A stretch of DNA of 39,431 nt from Pedosphaera sp. (GCA_031414955.1 JANOQV010000241.1:1-39431); one strand, 5' to 3'; shown: positions 235 through 38,184, counted from the first letter of the stretch. Made by a program: numbers and translations. The notes: generated from the letters alone by a model not told the origin.

Positions 235-258
235 TCACACTCAGATGGAGGCCCGCGC

Positions 259-7293: not shown

Positions 7294-7507
7294 GACCGGC
7301 CGAGAATACTTTTATCGCCCGGTGGCGGCAATGGACGAATGACATGGGGGCCGTATTGGGGCGCAGTTGAGCACGGCTTCCGACTCGTGTGCCCGCAGTT
7401 AGCCGCGGAGCGGCGTTGTCCTTGTCATGAAGCTCGTTCAGGTCGCTCAAATCCAGATTGCAAACGAGGCTTGGCGCGCTGTGCGTTTTCAGTCACGTTC
7501 CGTCCGT

Positions 7508-10500
7508 ATGAGAAACTCCTTCACCCTCCGATGGCTCCGCGTTTCGCTCGCCACTATCCTCCTCGCCACCGTCCTCGGTCGCGCCGGCACTACGAATTTC
7601 TTCGAGGGCTTTGAAGGTGTCTTGAATCCGGCTTGGTCCGTCGGGGATGCGAACGCCAGCGGCACGCCCGCCTATTGGGCCATCGTGGACAGCGCCTTCG
7701 GCGGTGAAGGCACGCATGGCGGAGGCGGTAAGATTTATTGCGCCGGTCTCGGCTACGCGGGTTCGACCAGCACGCCCACCTACCGTGACAGCATGAGCGC
7801 CTATCTTCAGCGCAGCATCAACCTCACTGGCTACAGCAACGCCACGCTTTCTTTCTGGTTTAAGCTGCCCGGAGTCGAGAGCGGCTACGATTCGGCCAAC
7901 GTGTATCTCGACAGCACGCTGCTCTGGTCCAGCGACATTGCGGCCACAGGCTGGACGCAGGTGGTGCTGTCTCTGGACGCGTTCGTGGGCGGAACGCACA
8001 CTCTCAAGTTTGAGTTCACCAGCGATACCACGGTCACTGCGGAAGGCTGGTATCTCGATGACATCCTCGTCGTGTCCGGTCCGGGCAACGACGCCTTCGC
8101 CAGCGCCTTCCTCCTCACCGGTGGATTCGGCTCGGTGACCAACAACAATGCCGCCGCAGGCAGCGAGGCGGGCGAGCCGCATCCAGGGAATTCAGTCTGG
8201 TATCGTTGGACGGCCCGGACGAATGGCCTCGTGACCTTCCGCACGGGCGGCAGTTCGTTCGACACCATCCTCTGCGTCTACGCCGGAACCAATTTACTCA
8301 CGTTGGCGAACGTGGCCTGCGACGACAATGGCGGCAGCAACAGCACCAGCCTCGTGAGCTTCAACGCGACCAACGGCGTGACCTACAGCGGCTCGGTGCG
8401 CGGGGCCACGAATGCGGAAGGCGCGGTTGTGCTGAGTTGGGATCAACCGAATGGTCACGGACTCGATCTATTGCCCGACTTGAGCGTCTGGGCCAGCCAG
8501 CCCAACGCTTATCTCTACGGCTGGTATCTCGACAGCAATCAGATTCCAGGGCGCGTGCTGCTGCGCATCTCGACCGCGACCCCGAACAGCGGCACCGGCC
8601 CGCTCGAACTGCACGGCAGTTCCACCACGCCCGGCGTTTCCCAGCGCATTTTCCGCAACGACGGCACCTGGTGGGAACGCTACGCCGGAACCTTCACTTT
8701 CCACGCCGGGCACCAGCATTTGCATTTCGACAACTGGCTCAACTTTCACCTGCGCTCCAATCTGTTGAACGATGCCGTGGGCGACATCATTGTCTCGGGC
8801 GACAAGACCAGCTTCGCCATCATTGACCTCACGCCCTACAACCTCGCGCTGCCCGGCGCGCCCGCGAGCGGCCATTACGGCGGCGGACTGGTGCAGGGAC
8901 TGTCGGTAGGCTGGGCGGATGTCTATGGCGCGAACCTCACCGATCAGTGGATCGATGTGACCGACGTACCGGCGGGCCGCTACTGGTTGGAGGCGATTGT
9001 CGATCCGGAGAACAGCATTCTGGAATCCGACGAGTCGAACAATGCCTCGCGCATTCTCATCGACCTCAATGTGGGCGGCGGGGGCGGCGGCAGCACGAAC
9101 GGGCCGGCTAACAATTTCTTCACCAACGCCTTTGTGCTGGGCGGGGTGATCGCGGCCTGGGCCGACTCGAACACCGGCGCGACGCGCGAGGCGGGCGAAC
9201 CGAACCACGCGGGCAACAGCGGCGGCCCCTCGGTCTGGTTCCGCTGGACCGCGCCCTCGAACATGAACGTGACCCTCACCACGGAAGGCAGCTCGTTCGA
9301 CACGACGCTCGGAGTTTACACGGGTGCGACCGTCGCGAGCCTCGCTGTCGTGGTCAGCAACGACGACGTGGTCTCTGGCACGCTCTGGAGCCGCGTTACG
9401 TTCTCTGCCACGAGCAACGCGACCTATCGCATCGCGGTGGACGGCTACAACGGCACGTCGGGCAGCTACGAGTTGAACCTGAACCCGGCCTGGAACGATC
9501 ATTTCGCCAGCAGCCTCGTGCTGACCGGCGCTTCCGGCACGGTGAGCGCGAGCACCCGTGGGGCGACTCGACAGGCCGGCGAGACGAACCACGCTGGTGT
9601 CTTCGGCAGCAACTCGATCTGGTTCTCCTGGACGGCGGCGCTTTCCGGCGAGGCGATTTTCCAGACCATCGGCAGCGGCTTCGACACCTTGCTGGGCGTT
9701 TACACTGGCGGCAGTGTCGCGGCCCTGACCGTGGTGGCGGCGGACGACAACTCCGCCGGCGGCACCGCAAGCCGCGTGACGTTCAGCGCCGTGGCCGGCT
9801 CGACTTATCGCATCGCCATCGATGGCCCGGCGGGCGCGCGGGGCCTGGCGCGGCTGACCTGGGCCGGCCCGACGCCGCCCACGATTCTGGCCCAACCGCT
9901 CAGCACCAACGTCACGGCGGGATCAGCGGCCACGTTCAGTGTCACCGCCGTCGGGTCCGCGCCGCTGGCCTATCAGTGGCGGCATCAGGGCACGAACCTC
10001 ACGGACAATCTCTATGTCTCCGGCGCTCATTCGCCGCTGCTGGCCTTCAACAAAGTTCAAGCCGCGAACGCGGGCGCTTACACCGTGGTCATCACGAATG
10101 CCTACGGCGCCATCACCAGCGCGCCCGGCAATCTCATTGTGGTGGATAACCCGCGCGTCGTCTTCGTCGAGGAAGCCGCCGGTCACAGCGGCGCCTTCGT
10201 GCGCGTGCCGGTCGAGATCCAGAGCCTCGGCAACGAACACGCGGTGAGCTTCTCACTGACGTTCGATCCCGCCGTGCTTTCCAATCCGCGAGTGACGGAT
10301 GTGCCGGCCGGTGCAGCGCTGGTGCTGAACACCAACCAGGTCGGCACCGGGGCGCTGGGCGTCTTGGTCACGCTGCCGGCGGGCGGGGTGTTTCCGGCTG
10401 GGGATGCGGGGGTGGCGGAGTTTGTCTTCAACACCGCGCCGTCGCCCGTCGCCCTCGACACGTTCGTCGGGTTCCATCTGTCGCCGGTGCCGCGCCTCGT

Positions 10501-10771
10501 CACGGACACGAACGGCGTGACCCTCCCGGCCTTGTTCGTGGCCGGGGTGATTCATCTGGAAGCGCTGCGGCTGGCGAGTGGCGGAGTGAGCAACGGAGTC
10601 TTCCGGTTGAGCTTTGGCGCGGTGAACGGCGAACGGTACGCCATCGATGCCTCGGCGGATTTGATCAACTGGACGCCGCTGGCCACCAACACCGCCGTGG
10701 GAAGCTCGATCCAGTTCCCCGACACCAACGCGCTGCCGCATCGTTTCTATCGCGCGCGTCCGCTGCCCTGA
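7508..10771 (+). CDS. Large secreted protein with lysyl-oxidase domain, three PPC-like beta repeats, Ig and cohesin-like domains, C-terminal FYR module
   Basis: Signal peptide from ATG 7508. LOX motifs LPDL, HAGHQHLH, KTSF, QGLSVGWADVY, QWIDVTDV...ESDESNN. Three repeats with S(V/I)W(Y/F)xWT...GSxFDT. Ig motif PLAYQW...YTVVITN. Confidence 0.88.
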   Translation: MRNSFTLRWLRVSLATILLATVLGRAGTTNFFEGFEGVLNPAWSVGDANASGTPAYWAIVDSAFGGEGTHGGGGKIYCAGLGYAGSTSTPTYRDSMSAYLQRSINLTGYSNATLSFWFKLPGVESGYDSANVYLDSTLLWSSDIAATGWTQVVLSLDAFVGGTHTLKFEFTSDTTVTAEGWYLDDILVVSGPGNDAFASAFLLTGGFGSVTNNNAAAGSEAGEPHPGNSVWYRWTARTNGLVTFRTGGSSFDTILCVYAGTNLLTLANVACDDNGGSNSTSLVSFNATNGVTYSGSVRGATNAEGAVVLSWDQPNGHGLDLLPDLSVWASQPNAYLYGWYLDSNQIPGRVLLRISTATPNSGTGPLELHGSSTTPGVSQRIFRNDGTWWERYAGTFTFHAGHQHLHFDNWLNFHLRSNLLNDAVGDIIVSGDKTSFAIIDLTPYNLALPGAPASGHYGGGLVQGLSVGWADVYGANLTDQWIDVTDVPAGRYWLEAIVDPENSILESDESNNASRILIDLNVGGGGGGSTNGPANNFFTNAFVLGGVIAAWADSNTGATREAGEPNHAGNSGGPSVWFRWTAPSNMNVTLTTEGSSFDTTLGVYTGATVASLAVVVSNDDVVSGTLWSRVTFSATSNATYRIAVDGYNGTSGSYELNLNPAWNDHFASSLVLTGASGTVSASTRGATRQAGETNHAGVFGSNSIWFSWTAALSGEAIFQTIGSGFDTLLGVYTGGSVAALTVVAADDNSAGGTASRVTFSAVAGSTYRIAIDGPAGARGLARLTWAGPTPPTILAQPLSTNVTAGSAATFSVTAVGSAPLAYQWRHQGTNLTDNLYVSGAHSPLLAFNKVQAANAGAYTVVITNAYGAITSAPGNLIVVDNPRVVFVEEAAGHSGAFVRVPVEIQSLGNEHAVSFSLTFDPAVLSNPRVTDVPAGAALVLNTNQVGTGALGVLVTLPAGGVFPAGDAGVAEFVFNTAPSPVALDTFVGFHLSPVPRLVTDTNGVTLPALFVAGVIHLEALRLASGGVSNGVFRLSFGAVNGERYAIDASADLINWTPLATNTAVGSSIQFPDTNALPHRFYRARPLP

Positions 10772-10870: not shown

Positions 10871-13800
10871 TCAAGGTGCCGCCAGCCGGTAGAAGCGCGT
10901 CCCGTTGGTAGTAGGATCGGTGATGACGATGGTTCGCACCGTCGGTGCGGAAGCCACATTGGTCATTGGCAACCAGGTCAACGCCGTGAGCGTATCCTTG
11001 AACTGCACGGTGAAGGTGCGGTTCGAGGCCGCTGTGAATTCAAACTCCACCCCGCCGCCGGTCGCACTGATGCGCTCCACATGCAGGCGGCTGGCCGGAT
11101 TGTTCGGGTGCGTGCCGGCGAGATACTCCTGCCCGTTCGTGAAGCCGTCACTGTCGTTGTCATCGTTCGCGTCGGGCGTGCCGACCAGCGTGCCGTTGGC
11201 GATTTCCCACGCGTCGGGCAATCCGTCGCCGTCGCTGTCCACGTCGGCGTTCTCGCGGCCCGGCGTCGCGGTCGCGGCCTGCCAGTTGATCGGGTCGTCG
11301 CCATATTGATTTGAAAACTTGCGCTGGAGGGAAGGACCGCTTCCATCCGCCGCCGCCGGCCACGGCGCCTTGTCGTTGTAACGCACCGAGTCCACGACGA
11401 TGTAAGGCGTGCCGTTCGTGTCCGGCGCGTCGGGGCGCGTGAGCGAGAGGCGCTCGCCGCTGCCCTGCAACGAGCCGAGAAAATCGTAGGTGAAGATCGG
11501 CACGTTCACCGGCACCGAGTGGTTCGCGCGAAAGCCAGTGACGTTGCTGATCACGACAAGGACGAGTCCGCCGGGCGGCACGGTGAGGTTCGTCGGAAAA
11601 GTGAAGCCCACGCCTTCGAGCTTCCAGGTATTCGCCGGGAACGCCGCGTGGAACAGCGGCACGTTGGTCGCGCTGATGTTCTTCAATTCCACGAACGCAT
11701 CTTGTGGCATCACGGGATGGTAGTGAATCTCGTTGATGACGAGCGGCCCGACGCGCGGGCCGGAGTTGGTGGCGTTGAAAGTCGGGGAGATTTGCGCCGG
11801 GAACTGTTCCTCGCCCACGCTGTTGAGGTGGCGGCCAAAGGTCACGCCGTTCGCCGCCGCGCTGAAGCTGAAGCCGTGCGACCAGCCGGTGAGATTCGTG
11901 TTCGCATCACCGGAGAAAAGATAGACGAACTCGCCGCTGGAACTGAGTGAGAAGCTGTCGTTCGTGCCGGGAGTGGCGTTGAACTGCGTTTCGTCGAAAG
12001 TCAGGAAGCCGCCCGCGGTGATCGTCATGCCGTTGGGGATGCGATACTTCTTCAGCCGGCCGGATTCGTCCGTCAGGAACCAGCCGCCCACATCCACATT
12101 GGTCGCGGCGAGGTTGTGGATTTCAATGCGGTCCACCGCCGGCAGATCGGTGTGCGTGAGCACTTCGTTGACGACGACGGGGGCGATGAACGGCGCGGGA
12201 TCGTCCGCGCCGGGCGAACCGCCGCTGAACGTGCTGGCCCGCCACTTCGCGCCGTCGTCCGGGGCCTGGAACGTGCCGGGGAGCAATGGGACGAGCGAAA
12301 AGCCATGACCGTCCGGCGTCACCGGCCACGGCGCAGTGGTGCCGTAGGTGAGCGAAAGAATGGTCGGGCCGTAGGGCGGGCCGCCCGCCGCCTGCTGCGA
12401 GAGCGTGATCGTCTCCCCGTCGTTGGCGAGCTGTCCGGTGAAGAAGCCGTCCGCCGTCACGCCGGGATACTTCGCGTTGAACGGAATCCCGCTGCGCGCG
12501 AGGACGAAGAACTGGCCCGGCCCGAGCAGCGTGCCGTTGGTGAAGTTGAACGTGAAGCCGTCGGTGAACCCGCAGCCGGTCAGATCGAGAGCGTTCGTGC
12601 CGTAGTTTTTCAACTCGAGGAACTCCAGATCGCTGCTGCCAAAAGGCGCGAGCGCAGGCGGGCGGTACATGATTTCCGTCAAGGCCAGCTTCGAAAAATC
12701 CTGCGGTGGAAAGAACGTGGCCTCGGCCAGCGCGCTCCAGTTGCCGCCGCCAAGCACGCGCGAACGCACGAGCGTTGGCGCGTTGATCGGCACCGGCGTT
12801 GCGAACGCCTGCGCGCCCGCCGCGACCGCGCCGCTGCCATACACGCGCGGGTCGCTGCCGTCGGTGGTGAAGTAAATCGTCCCGCCGACATTCGTGTGCG
12901 TGATGGTGAGGGAGAAGCCTGCCGTTACGCTGCCGCCGAACTGGCTGAACACGGGAGCGCCGACGAGCGGATACAAATTGCCGGCTTGGAAGCGGGCCAC
13001 GTTGTCCGCCGTGAGCTTCTGGAAAAAGTTCGTCAGCGTTTTGTCGAGTTCCGGCCGCCACCATTCGTTGCGCGTGAAAGTATTGCTCGTGCCGATCTGC
13101 CCGGCGGGCACGCCGATCTTGCGCGCGTCACCCCAGCGCGCGGACTCGCCCACGAGGGCGTTGGTCAGTCCCGTGGACGCGGCGAGCAGGCGCGCGGCGT
13201 TCGCGGCCGGCGTGAGCGCGCCGCCGTTGAAGAGATGCTTATGAACGCGGTCGGCGAAGCGCAGGCGGAATTCCGGCCAGTTGCGGCACTGGAAGTAAAG
13301 ACGCGCGGGGCTGTATTGCTCGCCTGCGCCGCCGCCGTTGTTGCCCGCGTCAATGCGGTTGCGACGCACCAGCCGGTCGAGCACCAGCTCTTGATCCCAC
13401 ACGGCGAAGATAAATTTTGTGCCCGCCACGCCGTTCGTCGCGCGGCGGTGCGCGCCGTACCAGTTGTGTCGCGGCCAGTCCTCGGACTCAGCGACGATGT
13501 GGAGCATCATGTAGTCAATGAGGTTGTCCACATCCACGGCGTTGGTGATCGCGGCGTAGGCGGACTCGCTGGCGATGGGCGACGCGGCGAGCGCGAGCAC
13601 GGCGTTCCAGTCCGTGAGCGAGCCGTCCACGAGCACGGTCGGGCCGTTGTTGTCCTCGCCCACCACCACATCCCACGCGCCCTCGTCGCCGCCGAGATGC
13701 TGGCTGAAGTAATACGCGCCGTAGCGTTCCGAAGGGAAGTAGAGGCCCCAATACAAACCGTTGAGATAAAGATGCGCGAACGCGCTGCGGCTCGAAATCC

Positions 13801-16312
13801 AGCCCATGTCGCGGAAAGATCCCTTCACCCACACGTCGCGCAGGTAGAGCGTGTTCTCGGGACGATAGCGCAAGCCACGGAACTGCTCGCCGGTCTCGCT
13901 GCTGGTATAAATTGTGTTGTCCGCATAGCGACCAGCCCAGCCGTCCACGAAGCCCGCCGAGCGCAGGATGATCGCGTCGTGCGTTTTCACGCCGCCGCCG
14001 AACCAGTCGTAGTCGAGCTTGGTCGGGCCGTAGTCGCTGTTGAAGTTGAGCCGCATGGAATGCTTCGGCGTGCGGGCGTTGTCGCGGCTGGCGTTGCCGT
14101 GCATTTCCATCTTCGCCGTCGTGGCAAACTCGGTGCCGCCGTCGCCCGCGATCAATTCCGCCGAGGCTGCGCGTTCCCACGCCGCGCCGCTGCTGGTCGC
14201 GTTCGGGTAAATGCCGGTCGAGGAATTCCACAGGCCATCCTGGCCCGACACGAGCATCAGGCTCGGAATGCTCCGCAGATCGTTGCTGATGGTCGCGCCA
14301 TAGACGACGTGGTTCACGATGTTTGAGTCCATCGCGTAGTCGGCGGTGTAGGCGGCCTGCCAGAGCGTCGGGTAGCCGGGGATGTTGTTCGACTGACGCA
14401 GCACATCGGTCATGAAAATGTAGCTGTGCGTGTCCACGCCGCTCGGCACCCAGCCCGCCAGATACGCGGCGGCACGGATGAAACTGTTTCCCGTGATGCT
14501 GATGGGCGCGGTGTGCAGGAAGCCGTTGGTCGGCGCGGGCGCGCTGCCGTTCGTCGTGTAATAAATGCTGGCGCCGGCCGTGGCGCAGGTGATGGAGAGC
14601 GAGAAGGGCGCGTCGAAGAAGCCGCGGTCCACACTGAACTTGGTGTCGGCCACCACGCCGTAAAGCGCGGCACTGTTCGACGTGCCGGGCGTCACGGGTG
14701 CGAAGAAGCCGTTGGTGATCGGCTGCAAGCTGGCGATGAGCTGCGGCTCGATAAAAAAGTCCGAGTCACCCGCGGCGATGTTCAACGCCTGCACCGCGAG
14801 AATGTTGGTGCCACCGACCAGCAGTCCGGGAGCCGCGGGCAAAATGATGTCCTCGGCCACGGCGGACGAGTTGGTGGCGGTGGCGGCGGAGTCCCACGCG
14901 GGTGTAAGCGGGGCGTTGCGACGCGCGACCTCGGTGCCGTTGAGGTAGGCGATGAAGCCGTCATTGTACTTCACGCGCAAGGTGACCTGCGCCACCAGAG
15001 CGGGAGTGGAGACAATGAACGACTGCCGCGCGTAGAGCGTGGAGTTTAGGCCGGCTAGTGCAGTGGCGTTGCCGTTCGTGGCCGGCAGCAGGACGGCGGG
15101 CGTGACCTGAATCGCATTCAGGAAAACCCCGAAGGAAGCGATGGGTGTCGGGGCGGAGGCGTCCACGCTGGCCGGGTTGCGCCGGCCGCGAACCACCACG
15201 AGACCGTCCGCGTCCGACGTGGCGTCGAAGGTGAAGTTGTACTGGGCGTCGCTGGTCGGAAGCACCGTGCCGTTGAAGGCGTAGCCGTTGGTGGCCACCA
15301 CGCCATTGGCCGACCAGTCGGAGACACGGTTGCCTCCGCTGCCGCTGTCGTACGACCAGACAGTCAGGCGATGGAGCGCATTCGAGGCCAGGCCCGCCAG
15401 TGTGATGTCCAGTCCGCCGGTGGTGTTCAAATCCTGGGAGAAGACGAAATCGCGCAGCAACGGCGCGTTGGTGCCCCCGGCCGAATCCACCGGCGTGCCG
15501 CGCAGCCGATCATTGTAACCGAAGGGCAGGGTGTTCGACAGCGTGACGGAATAAGCGCCGTACGTTCGCACCGTCGCCTGAGTTTGCACGGCGGTGACAC
15601 TGACATTGGAGTTGATGACGAAAGGCTGAAAGCCCGCCAGCGTGTTGGTGGGGAAGTTGGAATTGCGCCGGTTGAAATCCACGCTCAGGAGCGCCGCCCC
15701 GGCCGGCGCGCTGAACAGGCCCACGTCGTAGCGCAGGGGCATGAGAGCGCTGCTCCAGGAAGAGTCATCGAATCCGGGCGCAGTCCAGGTCGCGCCGGGC
15801 GCGTCGCTCACTGGCACGAGCCAGCGCGTCGCGCCACCAGCGGCGAGGAGCGTGACCACGGCGCCGTTCGTGGTGCCGGGGCCGTAACTGACGTTGCGGT
15901 GTTGCTGCGGGTAATTGAACTCGCTGGCGATGACGCTGTTCGAGTCCACGAGGGCCAGATAGCCGCCGCCGTTCTGCAACTGGAAGTTGGCGTGCAACTG
16001 CGCGCCGTTGGTCGCGCGATCCTTGCCCGAGGCGAAGACGATCAGGTAGCCGCCGGCGGACAGATTGGTGGCGGGAAAAGCCCACTTGGCCAGGTTGGTC
16101 GGATTGTCCGTGAGCCGCCAGCCCTCAAGGCTGACCGCCAGCACGCTGGTGTTGCGCAGTTCGATCCAGTCCGGCGTGTCGCCGTCCTGATCGATCAGCC
16201 CGCCGTCGTTCTCGGCCAGGAATTCAGAAATGATGATGGTGGCGGCCCGGCTGCTTTGACCGAAGGCGAAAAGAGACAGGCATAGGGCGAGAATGTGACA
16301 GCTTTGGCGCAT
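10871..16312 (-). CDS. Secreted CotH-kinase / lamin-tail-domain protein with Fn3-associated and TSP3-like repeats
   Basis: Signal peptide from ATG 16312. Four LTD-like starts (ISEF..DWIEL, TEIMY..EFLEL, NEVL..RIEI, NEIHY..FVEL). CotH motifs HGNASR, KHSMRL, LYLNGLYWGLY, DWPRHNW, WDQE. DSDGDGLPDAWE repeat. C-terminal RFYRL. Confidence 0.9.
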   Translation of the reverse strand: MRQSCHILALCLSLFAFGQSSRAATIIISEFLAENDGGLIDQDGDTPDWIELRNTSVLAVSLEGWRLTDNPTNLAKWAFPATNLSAGGYLIVFASGKDRATNGAQLHANFQLQNGGGYLALVDSNSVIASEFNYPQQHRNVSYGPGTTNGAVVTLLAAGGATRWLVPVSDAPGATWTAPGFDDSSWSSALMPLRYDVGLFSAPAGAALLSVDFNRRNSNFPTNTLAGFQPFVINSNVSVTAVQTQATVRTYGAYSVTLSNTLPFGYNDRLRGTPVDSAGGTNAPLLRDFVFSQDLNTTGGLDITLAGLASNALHRLTVWSYDSGSGGNRVSDWSANGVVATNGYAFNGTVLPTSDAQYNFTFDATSDADGLVVVRGRRNPASVDASAPTPIASFGVFLNAIQVTPAVLLPATNGNATALAGLNSTLYARQSFIVSTPALVAQVTLRVKYNDGFIAYLNGTEVARRNAPLTPAWDSAATATNSSAVAEDIILPAAPGLLVGGTNILAVQALNIAAGDSDFFIEPQLIASLQPITNGFFAPVTPGTSNSAALYGVVADTKFSVDRGFFDAPFSLSITCATAGASIYYTTNGSAPAPTNGFLHTAPISITGNSFIRAAAYLAGWVPSGVDTHSYIFMTDVLRQSNNIPGYPTLWQAAYTADYAMDSNIVNHVVYGATISNDLRSIPSLMLVSGQDGLWNSSTGIYPNATSSGAAWERAASAELIAGDGGTEFATTAKMEMHGNASRDNARTPKHSMRLNFNSDYGPTKLDYDWFGGGVKTHDAIILRSAGFVDGWAGRYADNTIYTSSETGEQFRGLRYRPENTLYLRDVWVKGSFRDMGWISSRSAFAHLYLNGLYWGLYFPSERYGAYYFSQHLGGDEGAWDVVVGEDNNGPTVLVDGSLTDWNAVLALAASPIASESAYAAITNAVDVDNLIDYMMLHIVAESEDWPRHNWYGAHRRATNGVAGTKFIFAVWDQELVLDRLVRRNRIDAGNNGGGAGEQYSPARLYFQCRNWPEFRLRFADRVHKHLFNGGALTPAANAARLLAASTGLTNALVGESARWGDARKIGVPAGQIGTSNTFTRNEWWRPELDKTLTNFFQKLTADNVARFQAGNLYPLVGAPVFSQFGGSVTAGFSLTITHTNVGGTIYFTTDGSDPRVYGSGAVAAGAQAFATPVPINAPTLVRSRVLGGGNWSALAEATFFPPQDFSKLALTEIMYRPPALAPFGSSDLEFLELKNYGTNALDLTGCGFTDGFTFNFTNGTLLGPGQFFVLARSGIPFNAKYPGVTADGFFTGQLANDGETITLSQQAAGGPPYGPTILSLTYGTTAPWPVTPDGHGFSLVPLLPGTFQAPDDGAKWRASTFSGGSPGADDPAPFIAPVVVNEVLTHTDLPAVDRIEIHNLAATNVDVGGWFLTDESGRLKKYRIPNGMTITAGGFLTFDETQFNATPGTNDSFSLSSSGEFVYLFSGDANTNLTGWSHGFSFSAAANGVTFGRHLNSVGEEQFPAQISPTFNATNSGPRVGPLVINEIHYHPVMPQDAFVELKNISATNVPLFHAAFPANTWKLEGVGFTFPTNLTVPPGGLVLVVISNVTGFRANHSVPVNVPIFTYDFLGSLQGSGERLSLTRPDAPDTNGTPYIVVDSVRYNDKAPWPAAADGSGPSLQRKFSNQYGDDPINWQAATATPGRENADVDSDGDGLPDAWEIANGTLVGTPDANDDNDSDGFTNGQEYLAGTHPNNPASRLHVERISATGGGVEFEFTAASNRTFTVQFKDTLTALTWLPMTNVASAPTVRTIVITDPTTNGTRFYRLAAP

Positions 16313-16405
16313 AAATATTTGGGATGGCCGAAAGCTACTACACCGGCAGGCGTTCTTACAACACAACGCTACGGGCAACAGGCTGAAGGTGTCTGCCCGG
16401 ATTCG

Positions 16406-18532: not shown

Positions 18533-18534
18533 CT

Positions 18535-21702
<3,168 letters not shown>

Positions 21703-21853
21703 TGGAAGTTTTGATGCTGGCCTCGATCCGGGTATTTCACAAGAATAGTGTTAATCGTGGCGGAAGTTATTTGACCAAATTGCGCGTTTGCCATCGCTCA
21801 TACAAATCCAACCTGGGGCGGTGTCATTCAGTTAGGAATCGAATACTGCTGTT

Positions 21854-27703: not shown

Positions 27704-30001
27704 ATGGCGCATGCGAAGTCCATTTCCACGGCGACAGAACCGCCGGGTTGCCTGGTGCAAACCGTGGCGGAAGCGATGCGCCGCGCACCGGCGCTGGAGG
27801 CCGTGCGAATCGATCATGGTCAGCAGTCCATCTCGCTGGCCACGATGGGACGGCCCAATCCTGAGATCGAGGGTGTCCTCACCCGGCAGATTCGCGCTTT
27901 GCAAGCGCAGTCGCCCGGTTGCCGGCTGCTGGAAGGCGAGCCGAATTGTGACACCTGCGGCCTGAGCTTCGATCCCGAACTGAAGAAGTCGCTCAACGTC
28001 CTGCAGGAACCAACGGCGATCACGATTGCGCGGCTGACCTGTCCGACCGCGCCCCGCTTTTGGAAATGGCACGCCTTGCCCTTCCCGAAAGTCGTGCCAC
28101 GGGTGGTGCATCTCGAGGATGAGGAAACGCATCTGCACGAGTGGAAGCAGCAACTCCTGGCGGCGGTGTTATGTGGCGGGCTGGCGCTGGCCGCCTGGGG
28201 GTTGGGCGGGGGTTGGGCGCGGCCGTTGTTCATCGCCGCTTATCTGGCCGGCGCATGGTTCACGGCCATTGAAGTCTGGGAGCACCTGCGCGAAGGCAAG
28301 GTCGATGTCCATTTTCTCATGCTGACCGTGGCGCTCGGCAGCGCGAGCATTGGCGCGTGGGGGGAAGGTTCCGCGTTGTTGTTTCTATTTTCGTTCTCGG
28401 GCGCGCTGGAACATTACGCGATGGGCCGGACGCAGCGGGAAATCTCCTCCCTCTTCAAGTCCGCCCCGAAGTCTGCGACCGTGCTGGATGACCGGCAGGC
28501 CGAGCGAGTCGTCCCGGTCGAGCAACTGCTGGCCGGGATGAAGCTGCTGGTCAAACCCGGCGATCAATTCCCGGTGGATGCCGAACTCAGCTCGGGCGCG
28601 ACGGCGGCGGATGAATCCAATCTCACCGGCGAGGCCGCGCCGGTGGACAAGCGGGTGGGCGACACGGTGCTGGCGGGTACGATTAACTTGTGGGGCGCGG
28701 TCGAGGCCGTCGTGCTGCGCCCGGCCAGTCAGAGCGCTTTGCAGAAAATCATCCGGCTGATCAAGGAGGCGCAACATCTCAAGGCTCCGGCGCAACGCTT
28801 CACGGACAAGTTCGGCACCAATTACACTTACACGATCCTGTCGCTCACGGTCGTGATGTTTTTCGTGTGGTGGCTGGGGCTGCGCCTTCCGCCCTTTGCC
28901 AGCACGGCGGAGACGCACAGCGCGTTCTACCAGGCGATGACCTTGCTGGTCGTGGCCTCGCCGTGTGCGCTCGTGCTGTCCATCCCGAGCGCCGTGCTGG
29001 CGGCCATCGCCAGCGGGGCGCGGCGGGGCATTTTATTTCGCGGCGGAGCGGCGGTGGAAAATTTGGCCCGCACGCAAGTGGTGGCCATGGACAAGACCGG
29101 GACGCTGACGACCGGCGAGTTGCGCGTCGAAGCGGTGGAGAGTTTCCCGCCCGGCCGGGAGCGGGAGATCGCCGCCCTGGCCTATTCGCTTGAACGCCTG
29201 TCCACCCATCCGCTGGCGCGAGCGATCACGCGCCACGGCAAGGGGCAGGGGTTGGAGGTGCTCGCCTTGGAGAAGTTTGAATCGGTGACGGGGCAGGGAT
29301 TGCGCGCGGATTGGCAGTCCCAGCCTCTGTTGCTGGGACGGCGCGAATGGGTCATGGCTGGAGCCAGGTCGCAGTCGGCGGAATCAAGTTCGCGCCAGTT
29401 TGGGGTTTCGGAAGTGTGGATTGCCCACGGCGGACTGCTCGGTCGCATCACCTTGCGCGACGATATCCGACCGGAGGCCCGGGCGGTGGTGGACGAACTG
29501 CGTGTTCGTGGGCTGCATACGGTCGTGCTCACCGGCGATCACGCGGAGGCCGCCGAACATTTGCGGACCAAGCTCGATGTGGACGAAGTGCGCGCCAGCC
29601 TGAAGCCCGATCAAAAGGTCGCGGCCATCCGCGAGTTCGCGAAGCGTGGTCTGCGCGTGGTCATGATCGGCGACGGCGTGAACGATGCGCCCAGCCTGGC
29701 CGCGGCTGACATTGGCGTGGCCATGGGCGCGCGCGGTTCCGACGCCGCGCTGGAGCAGGCCGAGGTGGTGTTGATGCACGACCGGTTGGAAAATTTCCTG
29801 GCCGCGCTCAAGCTGAGTTGTCGCGCCCGGGCCATCATCCGGCAAAATCTGATTCTCTCCCTTGGCACGGTCGTGGTGCTGGTGGTATTCGCCATCCTTG
29901 GAAAAATCCCTCTCACGCTCGGCGTGGTCGGTCACGAAGGCAGCACGGTCATCGTGGTCTTGAACAGTCTGCGCTTGCTGCTGCGCGAGGGACGTGGATG
30001 A
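27704..30001 (+). CDS. Heavy-metal P1B-type ATPase, P1B-4 signature
   Basis: TGE, SPC, DKTGT, HP, GDGVNDAP, HEGST. Start could instead be TTG 27662 or GTG 27701. Confidence 0.92.
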   Translation: MAHAKSISTATEPPGCLVQTVAEAMRRAPALEAVRIDHGQQSISLATMGRPNPEIEGVLTRQIRALQAQSPGCRLLEGEPNCDTCGLSFDPELKKSLNVLQEPTAITIARLTCPTAPRFWKWHALPFPKVVPRVVHLEDEETHLHEWKQQLLAAVLCGGLALAAWGLGGGWARPLFIAAYLAGAWFTAIEVWEHLREGKVDVHFLMLTVALGSASIGAWGEGSALLFLFSFSGALEHYAMGRTQREISSLFKSAPKSATVLDDRQAERVVPVEQLLAGMKLLVKPGDQFPVDAELSSGATAADESNLTGEAAPVDKRVGDTVLAGTINLWGAVEAVVLRPASQSALQKIIRLIKEAQHLKAPAQRFTDKFGTNYTYTILSLTVVMFFVWWLGLRLPPFASTAETHSAFYQAMTLLVVASPCALVLSIPSAVLAAIASGARRGILFRGGAAVENLARTQVVAMDKTGTLTTGELRVEAVESFPPGREREIAALAYSLERLSTHPLARAITRHGKGQGLEVLALEKFESVTGQGLRADWQSQPLLLGRREWVMAGARSQSAESSSRQFGVSEVWIAHGGLLGRITLRDDIRPEARAVVDELRVRGLHTVVLTGDHAEAAEHLRTKLDVDEVRASLKPDQKVAAIREFAKRGLRVVMIGDGVNDAPSLAAADIGVAMGARGSDAALEQAEVVLMHDRLENFLAALKLSCRARAIIRQNLILSLGTVVVLVVFAILGKIPLTLGVVGHEGSTVIVVLNSLRLLLREGRG

Positions 30002-30016
30002 GGCCTGGAGGCCGGC

Positions 30017-33000
30017 TTACTTGTTGGTCGCGAGCAGTTGCTGGAAGTCGGCGTTGCCCTTGAGCGAGGCGAACCGGAGGTCGCCGGCGATGGTCGGGGC
30101 GATGTTGGGCTGCGAGGCGTTGGTCTTGAGGCGCGCCTTGTTCAGGCTCAACGCTTCGCGCAGGGTGGAGATGGCTTCCTTCTGTTTGTTCTGCACGGCC
30201 TGCGCGGCGGCGTAGTCAAGCCAGGCTTCGGGGGTGGGCTTGATGGTGGTCCAGCGGGCCAGCGCCTTCTCCAGCTTCGGAAAATCCGTCAACTGCTGGT
30301 AGATTTGCGCGGCCAGGCTGATCATCTGCTCGTCCGATTTTGGGTTGGCGATGATTTCGTCGGCCAGGCGGAGGACATCTCCTGTACGACCAGTCGAGGC
30401 GTAGAACTGCGCAAGGGCGAAGGCGTCCTGGAAGTTGCCTGGGTTCTTTTTGTAGGCGGCTTCGAGTTTTGCGCCGTTGGGGTCGGCGGCGGGCGGCGGG
30501 GTGGCGGCACCGGCACCGGGTCCGCCTTTGAGGCGTTTGAGTTCCACGATGAGATTCACCAAGCCGGCGTTGTTCGGATCCACTTTCACGGAGGTCTCCG
30601 CCAGCAGGATGGCGTCGTCGAAGCGGCGCGCGCCGGCCAGGACTTGCACGTAGCGGTAGAGCGCCTCGGGGCTGTAGGGGCAGAAGGCGAAGGCCTGCTT
30701 GAAGGCGAAGTCGGCTTCCTTGAAGACGCGACGGTAGGATTCGAGGATGCGCTTCTGGTCCACCGTCAGCGAATTAGTGGGCATCTGCTCAAATTGCATC
30801 GCGCCCTGCTCGGCCAGCTTGGTCAGACGCCAGGCATAGACGCCGGCGATGGAGCTGCGCAGCTTGGAGAAGGCTTTCTGGCCGTCGTCATCGCGGACGA
30901 AGCGCGGGTCGCCGGTGAAGCCGCGGAAATCCTTGTTCACATACACGCGCTCGGCGAACTGGGTGATGTTCGAGATGGGCGTGTCGTAGGTGATCCAGTT
31001 GCCGATGAGGCGCTCGGAATAATCGCTCCAGAAGTTGTGATCCTTGTCCAGGATGTCCTGGGTCAACTCGGCCAGGGGCTGGCGGTTGATCTTCATGATG
31101 ACGCCGAAGGGCGTGAGGTGCGGATACATCCACTCGAGTGGAAAACTTTCCTCGACGTAGAATTCGTTGGTCGGGTTTTTCTCGAAGATGACCTTGGCCA
31201 ACAGGGCGTTGATGGCCATGACCGCGACCTGACCGGAGACCTGGACCTTGTTGTCCACCACGCGCACGTCTTCGCCGGGTCGGAGCGCGCCCTTGGCCAT
31301 GCGGGCCTGGGCGTCGGCCATGTATTCGGAAAAGCAGCGCTGCGAATCCTCGTTGGAAGGCGTGTTGATTTCCACTGGCGGATAGACTCCGCGGGCACGG
31401 CGTTCCTTCTCGATGCGGGCACCGTTGTTCATAAAGAAACTATCCAGCGGCACCGCGACCATTTTGGCCAGGAGGTTGGTCTTGAAGTTCAACTCGCGCT
31501 CCTTCTGGCTGCGGAACAACTCGCCGAAGAACGGAATGTCCGGCTCGGTGCTGCGGTTGTAATGCGCGCGGATGTATTGCAGGTAGGTGCCGTCGGCCAG
31601 CGCGTTCTGGGTGATGATGTAAACGTCGCGGCGATCGAACTCGGGATCGCGGCGGTCCTTGGGCGCGATGAAGCTCTCGCAGAAAATCATGTAGGTCGGG
31701 CAGAAGCGGCCGGGGTCAGTGCCGCCGAAGAGGATCGTGTCGCGCGCCATCTCGGGATAGATCTTGGCCTTGCCCTCGGGCGTCTTCATCAGCTCTTCAC
31801 GCTCGGCGCGGGCATACTTGAGCGTGCCGTCTTTGCCCTTGTAGGGCGGGGTGAACATGTCGTGGCCGAAGTAGAAGCCAAACAAGTGGCCGCGCTGTTC
31901 GTTTTCCGACCAGTGGGCCGCGATGGTCCAGACGGGCATGAGAAAGGCCAGCCCCAGCAGCACGGCCAGTGGCGCTTTCTGCCGGGCGGCGAGCACCGCC
32001 AAAGCCCCGAGCAAGGCCAGTCCGAAACCCCAGACGGAGGCGAAACGCAGAATCCAATACGGCGTTTCGCCGTAGGTCTTGAGCACGCCGAAGACCAGCG
32101 ATCCCGTCGCCAGCACGCTGAAGCTGATCAGCGCGTAGCGCCGGTACTTCTGATACTGCGTCACCAGTGTGGCCAGCGTGAGGGTCAGGCCGTATCCGAT
32201 GGCGAGGGTGATGATGAAGTGCGAGGCGATGAAGAATGGTTTGTTCAACGACACGCTTTGCCGGTCCGGCGCGGGGTTGAACAGTTCGAGCAGGAACGGT
32301 CCCAGCACGAGGTAGAAGGCCAGCAACCCGATCAGCCAGGCGCGCTCGCGCGGTTGCAGTTTGCGGAAGAAGAGCAGCGGCACCAGACCCAGCAGCAAAT
32401 AGCCCAGGCTGAATTCCTCCATCGGGCCTTCCACGAGGAACGACTTGCACTGCTGCGCGTAGCGGGTCACCCAGGACACGGTTTGCTCGACGATGTTGTT
32501 GCCCGTGCCCGCCGTGGGATGAATGCGCTCGTACTGGCCGCGGGTGAAGGCGTGGACGAAGCCGTTCACGGTGCGGGGATAACCCCAGTTCAACGGCGGG
32601 TTCGTCATCGAGGCCAGCGGCATGTAGAGGTAGAAGGCCGCGCCGATGATGAAAAAGACTCCCGTGCCCAGCGCCTTGCGCCAGTGCGGCATCCAGGGCA
32701 GGGGCTGCTTGTTGAACCAGAAATAAAGATCCAGCGCCGTGTAAACCGCCACCACCACGCCGACCCCGACCATCATGCCGGACATGCCCTTGAACCAGAG
32801 AAAGCCGATGGCGACTTTGGCTAGGATAACATCACGAACCAAATCCGCGCCGTTGGCCCGGGTGCGGATGGAGAGCCAGATCCAGCCGAGAATCGAGCCG
32901 ATGCCGACCAGCGTGTAAACGACCATGACGGGCGTGTTGCCGCTGAGCAGCGAGAGTTCGCCTTTGCCCTTGAGGATGAGGCCCATGATGTAAGCCACCC

Positions 33001-33745
33001 CGTTCCAGAAGAGCATGGACCGACCCAGCTTGGCCTGCACCAGCACGATCAGAATCTCCATCGCGATGGTGATGACCAGGAGCGATTGATGGTTGTTGAA
33101 GGCGATGCCGCAGAGGAACCAGGCCAGGTAAAGATACCGGTACTGGTTCGGCGCATACGACCAGTGCAGCAGGCAGACCAGCACGCCGGTGATGGAAAGC
33201 ATGCTCAATGAATACACCTCCACGATGACCGACTGGCTCCACATGAAGCCGTTGAAGGCGATGATCAGCGCGGAGACGAAGCCGCTCGCCAGGCAAATCC
33301 AGTTCTCCACCTTGCGCTCGATGCCCTTCAAGTCCGCCACGCTCTCGATGAACATGCTGCTGCCGCGCGAGACCATCAGCGCCACCAGCCCGCAGGCCAG
33401 CGCGCCGGCAAAGGCCGACGACACGCCCACCCGCCAGGCGATGTTCGAGAAGGGAACAATCTTCGTGAAAAGCCAGGTGTAGATGGTCCACACCGGGTAG
33501 CCGGGCGGATGCGGCACGCCGGCATACATCGAGCCGACGGCCATTTCGCCGGAGTCCTCCAGCGTCAGATCCGGAGCCAGCGTGTACATGTAGCCGACGA
33601 ACACGAGCAACGAGGAGAGGATGAATCCAATCCAGTCGATGCGTCGGAAAAGGGGCGGCGCTTTGGGCGTCGTCGTGGTCGGAGTTGGGGCCGGCGCAGC
33701 AGAAAGGTTCGCCGCCGTGGGGCGTTTCGGAGATTCAGAAGCCAT
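30017..33745 (-). CDS. DUF2723 / TMEM260-like GT-C membrane glycosyltransferase with large soluble domain and TPRs
   Basis: EDSGE and GVPHPPGYP near the N-terminus, WSQSVIVEVY, NHQS, YLYMPL..S..NPPLNWG. Many TM helices, then a soluble domain and TPR-like helices. Confidence 0.87.
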   Translation of the reverse strand: MASESPKRPTAANLSAAPAPTPTTTTPKAPPLFRRIDWIGFILSSLLVFVGYMYTLAPDLTLEDSGEMAVGSMYAGVPHPPGYPVWTIYTWLFTKIVPFSNIAWRVGVSSAFAGALACGLVALMVSRGSSMFIESVADLKGIERKVENWICLASGFVSALIIAFNGFMWSQSVIVEVYSLSMLSITGVLVCLLHWSYAPNQYRYLYLAWFLCGIAFNNHQSLLVITIAMEILIVLVQAKLGRSMLFWNGVAYIMGLILKGKGELSLLSGNTPVMVVYTLVGIGSILGWIWLSIRTRANGADLVRDVILAKVAIGFLWFKGMSGMMVGVGVVVAVYTALDLYFWFNKQPLPWMPHWRKALGTGVFFIIGAAFYLYMPLASMTNPPLNWGYPRTVNGFVHAFTRGQYERIHPTAGTGNNIVEQTVSWVTRYAQQCKSFLVEGPMEEFSLGYLLLGLVPLLFFRKLQPRERAWLIGLLAFYLVLGPFLLELFNPAPDRQSVSLNKPFFIASHFIITLAIGYGLTLTLATLVTQYQKYRRYALISFSVLATGSLVFGVLKTYGETPYWILRFASVWGFGLALLGALAVLAARQKAPLAVLLGLAFLMPVWTIAAHWSENEQRGHLFGFYFGHDMFTPPYKGKDGTLKYARAEREELMKTPEGKAKIYPEMARDTILFGGTDPGRFCPTYMIFCESFIAPKDRRDPEFDRRDVYIITQNALADGTYLQYIRAHYNRSTEPDIPFFGELFRSQKERELNFKTNLLAKMVAVPLDSFFMNNGARIEKERRARGVYPPVEINTPSNEDSQRCFSEYMADAQARMAKGALRPGEDVRVVDNKVQVSGQVAVMAINALLAKVIFEKNPTNEFYVEESFPLEWMYPHLTPFGVIMKINRQPLAELTQDILDKDHNFWSDYSERLIGNWITYDTPISNITQFAERVYVNKDFRGFTGDPRFVRDDDGQKAFSKLRSSIAGVYAWRLTKLAEQGAMQFEQMPTNSLTVDQKRILESYRRVFKEADFAFKQAFAFCPYSPEALYRYVQVLAGARRFDDAILLAETSVKVDPNNAGLVNLIVELKRLKGGPGAGAATPPPAADPNGAKLEAAYKKNPGNFQDAFALAQFYASTGRTGDVLRLADEIIANPKSDEQMISLAAQIYQQLTDFPKLEKALARWTTIKPTPEAWLDYAAAQAVQNKQKEAISTLREALSLNKARLKTNASQPNIAPTIAGDLRFASLKGNADFQQLLATNK

Positions 33746-33748
33746 AAA

Positions 33749-34141
33749 TCAATGCACAGGACGATTCGTGTTCAACAAGTCAAAAGAGCGCACACTTGAG
33801 CCGACCCCGCTGTCGTTTGTCCAACCCAAAATCGGGGCGCTGAAGGTGTTGTGTGGGGCCGTGGCCATGGCGAGCGAGGCAAGATGGTTGCTTAACGGGG
33901 CGAACTGCATGGTGATCATGTGCCCCCCGGGCGAGTGCGTCAGGTTCAGCACGGTGAACATCAAGGTCGCGCTGGCTGCGAGGCTGACGCCCAGCGTCTG
34001 ATACCAGGGCAGGGCGATGGTGCGCGGCCGGACTTCCTGCTCCTGACCCGCGGCTCCAAACAGCGACTGCTCAATGCGCGGGGAGGGACGCCGGGGCGTC
34101 CACGAGCGCATCTGCTCTTCCAACGAATTCGGTGTCTTCAT
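33749..34141 (-). CDS. Putative membrane anti-sigma factor
   Basis: 130 aa. Short N-terminal LEEQMRSWTPRRPS segment followed by one hydrophobic segment. Overlaps the ECF sigma 3' end; its stop is 3 bp from the DUF2723 start. Confidence 0.6.
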   Translation of the reverse strand: MKTPNSLEEQMRSWTPRRPSPRIEQSLFGAAGQEQEVRPRTIALPWYQTLGVSLAASATLMFTVLNLTHSPGGHMITMQFAPLSNHLASLAMATAPHNTFSAPILGWTNDSGVGSSVRSFDLLNTNRPVH

Positions 34142-34604
34142 AATTCTGCTCCTTCAAACAAGTCCGCAGCTTTTCCATTCCGTAGCGATACCGGCCCGCC
34201 ACTGTGTTCGGCGACGTCTCCAGTAAAGCGCCAATCTCCTCGAAGGTGTGCTCGTGCCAGATTTTTAACACGATGACTTCACGCTGGTCCGGCGGGAGCT
34301 TTTGCAGGCAGCGCAGCGCGGCCCGCTCCTGCGGCGTTTCGTGTTCGGTGCGCTCGAACCAGGTTTTGGACTCCAGTTCCCGCGTCCACCTTCGCAATAG
34401 CCCCCGCTTGTAGTTCAGCGCCCGGTTCCGGAACCCGCGGATGCAGTAATGCAGCCCGTTTTCCGGCTCCCGCTCCATCTTCAGCAACGCCATGAAGGTT
34501 TCCTGCACCACATCCTCCGCCTCACCGTGACTCAGGCCCAGCGCGCGTCCATACAGCAGGAGTTCGCTCGCCTTTGCCTCATAGAGTTGCTTTTGCCAGT
34601 CCAC
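34071..34604 (-). CDS. ECF sigma-70 factor
   Basis: Region 2 EAEDVVQETF; region 4 LPPDQREVIVLKIWHEHTFEEIGALLETSPNTVAGRYRYG. Confidence 0.92.
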   Translation of the reverse strand: MDWQKQLYEAKASELLLYGRALGLSHGEAEDVVQETFMALLKMEREPENGLHYCIRGFRNRALNYKRGLLRRWTRELESKTWFERTEHETPQERAALRCLQKLPPDQREVIVLKIWHEHTFEEIGALLETSPNTVAGRYRYGMEKLRTCLKEQNYEDTEFVGRADALVDAPASLPAH

Positions 34605-34621
34605 AGCTTGTTTTCACCCGA

Positions 34622-34648
34622 TAGACACCATCGGGTCGGGGATTTGTA
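34622..34648 (-). promoter_or_regulatory. Candidate ECF autoregulatory promoter
   Basis: Minus strand TACAA-N16-TGTCTA, about 18 bp before the sigma GTG start. The -10 lies in the loop of the inverted repeat ACCCGAT/ATCGGGT (34616-34636). Confidence 0.4.
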
Positions 34649-35026
34649 TAATGTTTTTCAACTTCCGGCGATTCGATTCTCAGCCGAGTGGAGAGAGCCA
34701 GGCGGTCGCGAACTGGTCTGCCCTATTCCGGGAAAATCAAATAAGTCCAAACGCCACGACCTTTTTGCCCAAAGCCATCGGAGCGGACGTTGCGTCTGGC
34801 GGCCGATCCCCCCAACCCGTCGTCCGCCCGGACAGTTGTTTTCCCCACCGGCTCTTTACGCCCCGCTCCGGCCGCGAGACCACAGGTCAATTGGTTTGCC
34901 TTCGTTCACTTGGACGCGGCTGCGCCTGAAGATCGCCCTCTACCAACGGTTTCAAGATGCATCCTTATTACCCGCGCCTGGCCTTTGTTGTTTGCAGCCG
35001 GATGCTGCCTCTGAAATTATCCCGAC

Positions 35027-35866
35027 GTGAATCCGTTGCACTGCCCTTTTGTGATCTTGATCCGCCATCGGTCACGACTCTGCGCGCTGGCCTGGTTCGC
35101 GTCTCTGCTGCTGGTTTTCTGCGCGGCGCAGGCCGCCCAGTTTGTCGAAGTCACGGCAGATCTCGAGGTCACAAGCTGGCGGTATCAAGAGGAGACCGGG
35201 CTGCCGTTAAAGAACATCCGGAACTTCTCCGTGCGATGTGTGGTGGGCACGAACACCTGGCTCATCGAGCGCCACACTACCAACACCGCGCCGGAGAGCG
35301 TTTGGTTCGTGGAGGGCAAAATCGTCCGGCTCACCGCTCCCAGCTTCGACACCGCTCCTTCCGTCCCGGACGATTCGGGATTTCAATCCACGCGCCGGGC
35401 CACCCGCTACTTGAACATCCTTGCCGCCGCCGATGGCTATCCCGCTGGCGACCTGTTTCTGAACCTCCCGTGGTTCGCCTTCTGCTCCGGTCCCTACCTC
35501 AAGCGTCCCGGACAGTCCGTGCCATTGCCCACGCCGCCGCAGGATCGTGCGGCCTTCGGTTTCCGGTCCGAGGTCACAACTTTTGCAGACAGCCTGGGCC
35601 TGCCTCGACGCGTCCAATTCTTCACTGGCCAGAAGCAGATCAAGTGCGACTACCAGGTGCAACAGTCCACCAACGTGCTCGGCTGGAACATCCCCACTGC
35701 CTTCACCGTGACTCAGAATGAGCCGAACAGCCTGGGCGTGTGGAGCAAGCAGCTTGCGGTGGCGGCCCGCGTCAAATCCATCCAGCCCGCGCCCGAGCCG
35801 TCTCCGCCCGAGGAAGTCCGGCAGCGCGTCGAGATCTGGGAACGGTATCCGACCAGGAGGAAGTGA
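35027..35866 (+). CDS. Hypothetical secreted protein
   Basis: 279-aa ORF with signal-peptide-like RLCALAWFASLLLVFCAAQAA. No family recognised. Confidence 0.65.
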   Translation: MNPLHCPFVILIRHRSRLCALAWFASLLLVFCAAQAAQFVEVTADLEVTSWRYQEETGLPLKNIRNFSVRCVVGTNTWLIERHTTNTAPESVWFVEGKIVRLTAPSFDTAPSVPDDSGFQSTRRATRYLNILAAADGYPAGDLFLNLPWFAFCSGPYLKRPGQSVPLPTPPQDRAAFGFRSEVTTFADSLGLPRRVQFFTGQKQIKCDYQVQQSTNVLGWNIPTAFTVTQNEPNSLGVWSKQLAVAARVKSIQPAPEPSPPEEVRQRVEIWERYPTRRK

Positions 35867-37844: not shown

Positions 37845-38129
37845 GAACCGCGAGGCCGGAAAGCCTCGCCACCTGCCGACAGAAATGTCGGCGCCACGGT
37901 AATGGCCCATCATCGTAACGCCGGCTTTCCAGCCGGCAGGTAACGAGACTTTCCAGTCTCGTGCTCCTCCTGTGTTGTTCAGGTTGGAGTGTTGAGAGAG
38001 CCATTTGGAACGGGAGGATCGAAAGCCTCCCTACCTGCCGACAGGAATGTCGGCGCTACGGCGGTGGCCCGCTGTCGTAACGCCGGCTTTCCAGCCGGCA
38101 GGTGGCGACACTTTCCAGTGTCGCAGTTC
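37845..38129. repeat. Four double-hairpin REPs upstream of RAYT
   Basis: Copies at 37845-37898 (-), 37914-37966 (+), 38008-38060 (-), 38076-38129 (+). Consensus CGT(A/G)(A/G)C-GCCG(A/G)C-loop-G(T/C)CGGC-AGGT-second hairpin-GTTC. Confidence 0.9.
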
Positions 38130-38184
38130 CTCGCTTTTCATTTTCAACTCGACTGGCCCAGCACCGCGCGGATACCTCCACTCC

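Follow-up and report, generated by a model that had tools for sequence, protein, structure and literature searches.

A putative extracytoplasmic function sigma regulon around a TMEM260-type glycosyltransferase in Pedosphaera

Human TMEM260 is a protein O-mannosyltransferase for IPT domains, classed in CAZy family GT117 and represented by PDB entries 9RQL, 9RQM and 9RQN (PMC10214176; bioRxiv 10.64898/2026.03.17.711096); the former report notes bacterial homologues only as distant (PMC10214176). In Bacteroidota, a general O-glycosylation system acts at the motif D-(S/T)-hydrophobic, which is enriched in non-cytoplasmic proteins, and its transferase is given as undiscovered (PMC12871550); glycosylation in this phylum has been called understudied (PMC12632263). 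Here we describe a locus in a 39,431-nucleotide stretch of Pedosphaera sp. DNA (GCA_031414955.1 JANOQV010000241.1:1-39431; hereafter the window), where three minus-strand genes encode, in this order, an extracytoplasmic function (ECF) sigma factor, a protein with one transmembrane (TM) helix and an enzyme of the TMEM260 (DUF2723) type. The tight coupling claimed by a first-pass annotation of the window holds exactly: the first two reading frames overlap by 71 bp, and a 3-bp gap follows. The locus was followed by sequence analysis of residues, synteny, the shared promoter, tail conservation and the sidedness of Thr-Asn enrichment, with the host order taken as Limisphaerales/Pedosphaerales; the genome (G000) is 6.5 Mb and 96% complete, and its protein set consists of 4,213 rough in-house gene calls. 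We propose, with an even chance of being right, that these genes belong to an ECF regulon built around a periplasmic O-glycosyltransferase, and that a feedback circuit would read glycosylation capacity through the tail of the one-TM protein.

The enzyme resembles TMEM260 in having a glycosyltransferase-C (GT-C) membrane domain, a Rossmann-like palm and tetratricopeptide repeat (TPR) fingers in the same order, and in the residues equivalent to D52, H67, R264, Y267 and, by register, D441. It differs in length (1,242 aa against 707 aa), in about six extra membrane helices in the model, in an R355 that is out of register, in its ECF control, in a genome where neither IPT domain nor IPT sequon was found, and in the existence of paralogues that are hand-only (palm plus TPRs) or degenerate and wrist-only (the membrane half). 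The Bacteroidota system likewise involves a short motif that is shared across a lineage and over-represented outside the cytoplasm; however, it belongs to another phylum, whereas here the candidate motif is Thr-Asn, DT and DS are depleted, and the system is known from sequence alone. Among 14 control genomes, the DUF2723 family PF11028 was found in B. thetaiotaomicron only. On the regulatory side, RpoE-RseA-RseB (ECF02) is also an autoregulated ECF system with a one-TM anti-sigma at the +1 gene position and a periplasmic protector of its tail, for which there is a candidate here, according to the part of the ECF classification covered (PMC7826278). The promoter differs, the candidate protector here is an enzyme-derived palm and TPR protein whose binding to the tail is predicted, and degP is not a conserved target. 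ECF03 too has a one-TM anti-sigma that is conserved in its outer part and lacks a Pfam family, and it occurs in some Verrucomicrobia, but its −35 element is TTAAACC instead of TACAAA; the covered parts of that classification mention no link to DUF2723, no DUF2723 at all and no GTGTCT motif (PMC7826278).

Among the papers listed in searches on bacterial TMEM260/GT117, Pedosphaera glycosylation, Bacteroidota transferases and ECF factors in Verrucomicrobia, none was seen to describe such a system or a bacterial TMEM260 or GT117 member, and DUF2723 turned up in one paper (PMC10214176). What is new here is a defined promoter and regulon, a conserved tail threonine and a candidate sequon. The locus thus offers an enzyme with a mapped active site, a peptide with a single conserved Thr as its candidate acceptor, a promoter prediction and a candidate sequon across the proteome. 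If the proposal is true, a general glycosylation system exists in this lineage, which is abundant in soil and freshwater, glycosylation capacity becomes a new input for ECF signalling, and bacterial enzymes of the TMEM260 type could be examined as candidates for the transferase still missing in Bacteroidota.

Residues 64-235 of the enzyme match PF11028 (E 9.6e-29; 100.9 bits against a cut-off of 24.2), TPR_14 and TPR_19 score above cut-off at the C-terminus, and human TMEM260 (9RQL) is its sole sequence match in the PDB (E 2.4e-13). In TMEM260, D52, H67, R264 and Y267 bind the donor, the Asp of DSGE serving to position the donor and not as the base; the base is D441, located in the Rossmann-like palm, while an extended peptide is held by the TPRs (bioRxiv 10.64898/2026.03.17.711096). 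The four donor residues align with D64, H79, R402 and Y405 of the enzyme, with D64 in EDSGE and H79 in GVPHPPGYP, the two motifs that the first-pass annotation had correctly reported as retained. These four residues and D677 are invariant in all 121 aligned sequences. By register, D677 is the equivalent of D441, the catalytic base with which the first palm strand ends. A homologue belonging to a different class, which lacks a pre-palm insertion, aligns to TMEM260 as far as I435, and six residues on the Asp of its GGTD falls at position 441. The profile alignment leading up to the D677 segment reaches E 7.7e-11 against TMEM260. Two observations on residues weigh against the proposal. The segment carrying D677 has a negligible score alone, so that the assignment depends on an ungapped register, and R355, in transmembrane helix 10, is out of register, the aligned column holding V/P and a K/R standing one residue earlier in 119 of 121 sequences. 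Neither a profile (A2) nor a single homologue segment reached TMEM260 in the PDB. The earlier proposal to mutate the DSGE Asp thus concerns a residue that is indeed retained but is not the base; since D64 is assigned to donor positioning and D677 to the base, its mutation would be expected to affect donor binding.

A model of residues 30-1075 (mean predicted local distance difference test score, pLDDT, 89.8) has a fold that matches Pmt4, PMT1-2, STT3 and ArnT (Z 21-23; root-mean-square deviation 4-5; about 380-480 aligned residues), and 9RQL is absent from the fold lists for the model. The helix count of the model places the TPR domain, by inference, on the outer side of the membrane. A palm insertion of more than 90 residues after residue 785 is present in 74 of the 121 aligned homologues; the window copy and 46 others are without it. 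The family match, PDB match, donor residues and GT-C fold together bear out the likeness to TMEM260 first proposed from the sequence. The enzyme probably takes a sugar from a polyprenyl-phosphate donor and attaches it to Thr in exported proteins that are still extended. A search for a polyprenol-phosphate sugar synthase, which the first pass had suggested, gave a DPM1/Ppm1-like GT2 gene (G000:C254:6502), unlinked to the operon, and an ALG5-like GT2 gene (G000:C67:76361), both of which we take, from their motifs, to be candidate synthases. IPT-type acceptors like those of the human enzyme, in contrast, have no counterpart: the IPT domain (PF01833) was not found in the 96%-complete genome, and the IPT sequon P-x5-P-x3-G-P had no match among the 4,213 called proteins. 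The same substrate is therefore less likely, while the same mechanism is unaffected. A second PF11028 gene of the genome (G000:C14:50536-53622, L149) is divergent, has an extended TPR array and lacks DSGE and HPPGY; in G019, another genome of the order, PF11028 is matched only by a gene resembling this one.

The sigma factor matches TIGR02937 (58.1 bits; cut-off 42.9) and consists of regions 2 and 4 only, with Sigma70_r4_2 above and Sigma70_r2 just below the Pfam cut-off. Matches to it (E<=1e-20) occur in 27 of the 41 order genomes and in none of five genomes outside the order; in one contig (G002:C8), sigma matches occur in two frames. Conservation of the operon, which the first pass had proposed as a check, is extensive. 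In 22 of the 26 other sigma-bearing genomes the sigma gene lies directly 5' of the enzyme gene on one contig, three of the remaining four being broken by contig ends and one being a weak 42% paralogue. A scan of GTDB, which partly overlaps the order set, found the same arrangement at 47 of 62 evaluable loci, a further 8 of 70 loci being too short upstream. The enzyme is more widespread: 39 of the 41 order genomes match it, this one included, as do 40 of 111 genomes in a sample of the phylum (38 from other classes, one from another order of the class, and this genome). Of the 14 order genomes without a sigma match, 13 retain the enzyme, which is thus core to the order, with sigma control as an added layer. 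The operon may be stress-regulated, as the first pass put it.

The candidate ECF promoter noted upstream of the operon is real. The motif TACAAA-N13/14-GTGTCT stands 5' of 20 of 21 sigma genes by pattern and of all 21 by matrix, and scores of at least 21 occur at 45 of 47 further sigma-bearing loci; in the window there is one promoter match against 0.01 expected, and no sigma-70-type promoter was found at 29700-35100. When a matrix trained on sigma upstream regions only was run over the whole 6.5-Mb genome, six sites scored at least 17. The top site is that of the operon, which is in the training set; the second and third, both at 24.2, stand directly before the two free hand genes of the genome, at 21854 in the window and at G000:C305:57521. 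The maximum in the reversed genome is 14.5. Among relatives, scores of at least 21.9 precede 6 of 11 free hand or wrist genes, the null maximum being 10.9 over 400 windows. Metagenomic free hands behave in the same way: at the 64 of 79 loci with enough upstream DNA, 43 score at least 17 and 52 at least 11, against 0 of 158 control windows at 11 or above. Such scores precede none of 13 enzyme genes from genomes that lack sigma or have only a weak paralogue at 21.9 or above (0/13). Where no sigma gene is adjacent, 2 of 15 loci have the promoter immediately 5' of the enzyme gene, sigma being elsewhere in one of these two genomes. Presence before its own sigma gene and loss along with sigma fit predicted ECF autoregulation, and it is very probable from this distribution that the sigma factor reads the TACAAA/GTGTCT promoter. 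The degP/htrA gene was considered as a regulon member and rejected, the site scoring 19.7 in this genome and below 8 at the other 27 of 28 loci. The promoter of this gene (G000:C173:33747, L147) looks nearer to a GAAC/GTCT type and probably belongs to another sigma factor.

The free hand encoded in the window (21854-23308) is 29% identical to the extracytoplasmic part of the enzyme over 293 aa (E 1e-28), and 26% identical over residues 671-1074. Its family, which has an N-terminal anchor, accounts for 1,293 of 8,000 scored candidates, and the equivalent of D677, D208, is kept in 108 of 108. The model has a pLDDT of 87.9; fold searches returned only TPR-like proteins among the matches listed (best Z 9.5), TMEM260 not among them, and the Atlas gave a cluster with TMEM260_2 in 22% of its members (score 0.84), which is a lead only. 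The first pass had called this domain a stand-alone partner of the enzyme. By promoter and homology it does belong to the system, but not by position: physical linkage to the operon was rejected, as the free hands of the 10 of 40 relatives that have one are never on the contig of the enzyme and lie in unrelated neighbourhoods. The shared promoter without conserved linkage thus makes the domain a co-regulated protein instead of a linked operon partner. A split enzyme made of free hand and free wrist was also rejected as the leading explanation, as this genome yielded no intact free membrane half and both wrist-only proteins of relatives are degenerate (L065:4481-5893 and L066:308-1744; H79 is lost in both and D64 also in one). 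Both wrist genes are preceded by the ECF promoter, with scores of 29.0 (L065) and 31.8 (L066). Because it has no donor site and no intact free membrane half was found in the genome, the free hand is best read as a predicted peptide-binding protein and not as half of a split enzyme. A second free hand type (L062, L063, L064), 40-48% identical to the enzyme and about 30% to the free hand of the window, hints that free hands may have more than one origin. In a palm tree, 14 free hands split from 21 enzymes with support of 100/100; since motif extraction dropped 15 of 50 rows, the enzyme-like hands and both outgroups among them, the tree is silent on the number of origins.

The one-TM gene follows sigma in 17 of 17 sigma-bearing loci, and its position and topology suggest that the product is an anti-sigma that would bind and inhibit the sigma factor. 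It has a conserved cytoplasmic W-x-P-R-x-P-S head, one TM helix and a short periplasmic tail rich in S/T/N. The protein falls into 860 clusters at 50% identity, its mean identity is 29%, and it matches no Pfam or NCBIfam family; in the closest Atlas cluster to which a family is assigned, 13% of members have zf-HC2 (score 0.90), again a lead only. Within the tail, T108 stands in the context N-x(4-12)-[FL]-[DEG]-W-T-N and is kept in 18 of 18, 31 of 34 and 145 of 150 sequences, with N98 kept in 147 of the 150, although these 150 tails were chosen by a profile containing the motif and the count therefore leans high. Thr-Asn pairs number 239 against 61 expected in the tails of the 150 anti-sigmas and 14 against 11.5 in their cytoplasmic heads. 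Given this conservation, we regard it as evenly poised whether the tail itself is an acceptor or ligand of the hand. The conserved Thr in a short outer tail, its predicted co-transcription with the enzyme and a human relative that modifies Thr within extended peptides are the reasons for suggesting that the cell may use the fixed threonine to monitor its own protein glycosylation. Complex prediction for the hand (residues 615-1075) with the tail returned 0.00 in two runs, which gives no answer and is not used as evidence.

These data have led us to propose a model in which catalysis, acceptor, donor, binding, proteolysis and polarity are inferred. The sigma factor would drive the operon and the free hand genes. 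While the tail is gripped or glycosylated, the anti-sigma would be stable and sigma off; donor shortage or a build-up of unmodified exported protein would leave the tail bare and cut, freeing sigma to make more enzyme and more free hands. The free hands, having no donor site, would hold unmodified peptides or re-cover the tail, damping the response in the way that RseB protects RseA. The polarity of the model and its protease are guesses. The fullest version, in which a previously undescribed general Thr-Asn O-glycosylation operates throughout the order, sigma senses glycosylation directly through T108 as a reporter substrate and the free lobes are holdases or dampers, is conceivable but on balance doubtful.

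Several observations weigh against a dedicated circuit. The free hand is patchy among relatives (10 of 40), those of G006 (C584) and G016 (C162) look broken, 5 of the 11 free genes tested have no scoring promoter, and further sites with high scores lie before exported proteins that are unrelated and specific to a lineage. The alternative is an ordinary ECF pair for envelope stress, with a signal unrelated to glycosylation, the enzyme and free hands as outputs only and the tail Thr as a protease site or structural contact. The persistence of the enzyme without sigma in 13 genomes is in keeping with this explanation, as are promoter copies before a serine hydrolase, a TPR protein and small leaderless peptides. 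Yet the only targets that recur across families belong to one enzyme family, the degP/htrA site of this genome is not conserved (1 of 28 loci above 11), and the near-strict tail Thr forms part of a Thr-Asn pair, the pair found enriched outside the cytoplasm; we consider an ordinary pair unlikely. As a separate observation, strong promoter copies stand before nearly leaderless exported proteins at L122, L123, L129, L117 and L112, which comprise 74-90-aa peptides, a 178-aa protein and a serine hydrolase.

The Thr-Asn (TN) signal extends over the whole proteome. Sorting by hydrophobicity gave 1,191 exported-class and 1,798 cytoplasmic-class proteins. In the exported class TN occurs 3,894 times against 1,843 expected (2.11-fold), second only to the haem motif CH; the ratio is 1.29 in the cytoplasmic class, and other pairs stand at 1.05 (SN), 0.86 (NT), 0.78 (DT) and 0.85 (DS), the last two depleted. 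The enrichment is sided: in 34 membrane kinases TN is at 0.57 on the cytoplasmic side against 2.39 on the outer side, in 33 bitopic proteins at 0.85 against 1.98 across the membrane, and in 97 P-loop proteins at 0.99. Non-cytoplasmic proteins flanking the enzyme in the order have ratios of 1.43-1.46, and samples from other orders without the enzyme 0.85. The Thr-Asn enrichment is real and behaves like a sequon. The exported proteins that the first pass had singled out as Thr-Asn-rich are so (Table 1), and they are two among many candidate substrates, with no specific tie to the enzyme. The PSCyt/PSD1 protein at 18535-21702 in the window has a low-complexity stretch packed with Thr-Asn, and 11 TN against 3.3 expected over the whole protein.

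That this enzyme serves the Thr-Asn pair has, in our estimate, slightly less than an even chance. The comparisons that tell against it are the enzyme-bearing genomes of other classes, whose homologues are distant and whose TN ratio is 0.97; G019, of the same order and 91% complete, where the enzyme was not found and TN is 1.29 (95% interval 1.10-1.51); and G021, where the enzyme is present and a small 80-kb sample gives 0.94 (0.51-1.57). The samples of G021 and G022 are small, and the contrast between G019 and G021 did not discriminate. The regulon and enzyme could be as described and Thr-Asn not the sequon of this enzyme, the pair marking another modification, for example of Asn or by the divergent PF11028 paralogue or another GT-C, or a structural habit specific to the lineage. 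Enrichment in G019 alongside the divergent paralogue, the other classes that carry the family without enrichment, and three further PMT_2-type GT-C genes above cut-off in the present genome would all suit this explanation. It is nonetheless quite unlikely, given that G019 is incomplete and its value lies below that of this genome, that the enrichment was seen only in the order carrying this enzyme subfamily, and that the anti-sigma of the operon itself conserves the Thr-Asn motif. Modification of a lipid or surface polysaccharide by an ArnT/Emb-type GT-C, with the TPRs anchoring a complex, is very unlikely. In its favour, protein acceptors are not told apart from lipid or glycan ones by the fold match (Z is 21-22 for ArnT, ALG12 and AftB, at most about 2 from the value for Pmt4), and no characterised bacterial member was found in the literature searched. 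Against it, TMEM260, which is specific for protein, is the sole GT-C relative by sequence in the PDB, and the palm base and peptide-gripping TPR fingers are kept, also as free proteins.

Table 1. Features of the glycosyltransferase regulon and candidate substrates in the window
Feature	Position	Strand	Basis or remark
Predicted, autoregulated ECF promoter, TACAAA-N14-GTGTCT	34623..34648	-	18 bp 5' of sigma start
ECF sigma factor, 177 aa, GTG start	34071..34604	-	TIGR02937, Pfam Sigma70_r4_2
Putative anti-sigma, 130 aa, TM residues 49-67	33749..34141	-	Position and topology
Tail motif N98...[FL]-[DEG]-W-T108-N109, candidate acceptor or ligand of the hand	33815..33850	-	Conservation
TMEM260/DUF2723-type GT-C, 1,242 aa: membrane domain, Rossmann-like palm, TPRs	30017..33745	-	PF11028, TMEM260 alignments, model
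Enzyme codon D64	33554-33556	-	
Enzyme codon H79	33509-33511	-	
Enzyme codon D677	31715-31717	-	
Second ECF promoter copy	21801..21825	+	28 bp 5' of free hand gene; score 24.2, outside training set
Free hand, membrane-anchored palm and TPR paralogue without GT-C domain, 484 aa	21854..23308	+	Homology
Exported Ig/lysyl-oxidase-like protein, Thr-Asn-rich, candidate substrate only	7427..10771	+	16 TN against 6.7 expected
Exported LTD/CotH protein, Thr-Asn-rich, candidate substrate only	10871..16378	-	30 TN against 10.5 expected

Elsewhere in the window, BatA/B-like von Willebrand factor A and TPR genes occupy 124-3844, a gene of the 23S-IVP family lies at 18026-18592 between PSD1 and DUF1501 genes, an exported protein that is divergent from sigma and has no Pfam match is encoded at 35027-35866, and an IS200-like transposase at 38005-38868.

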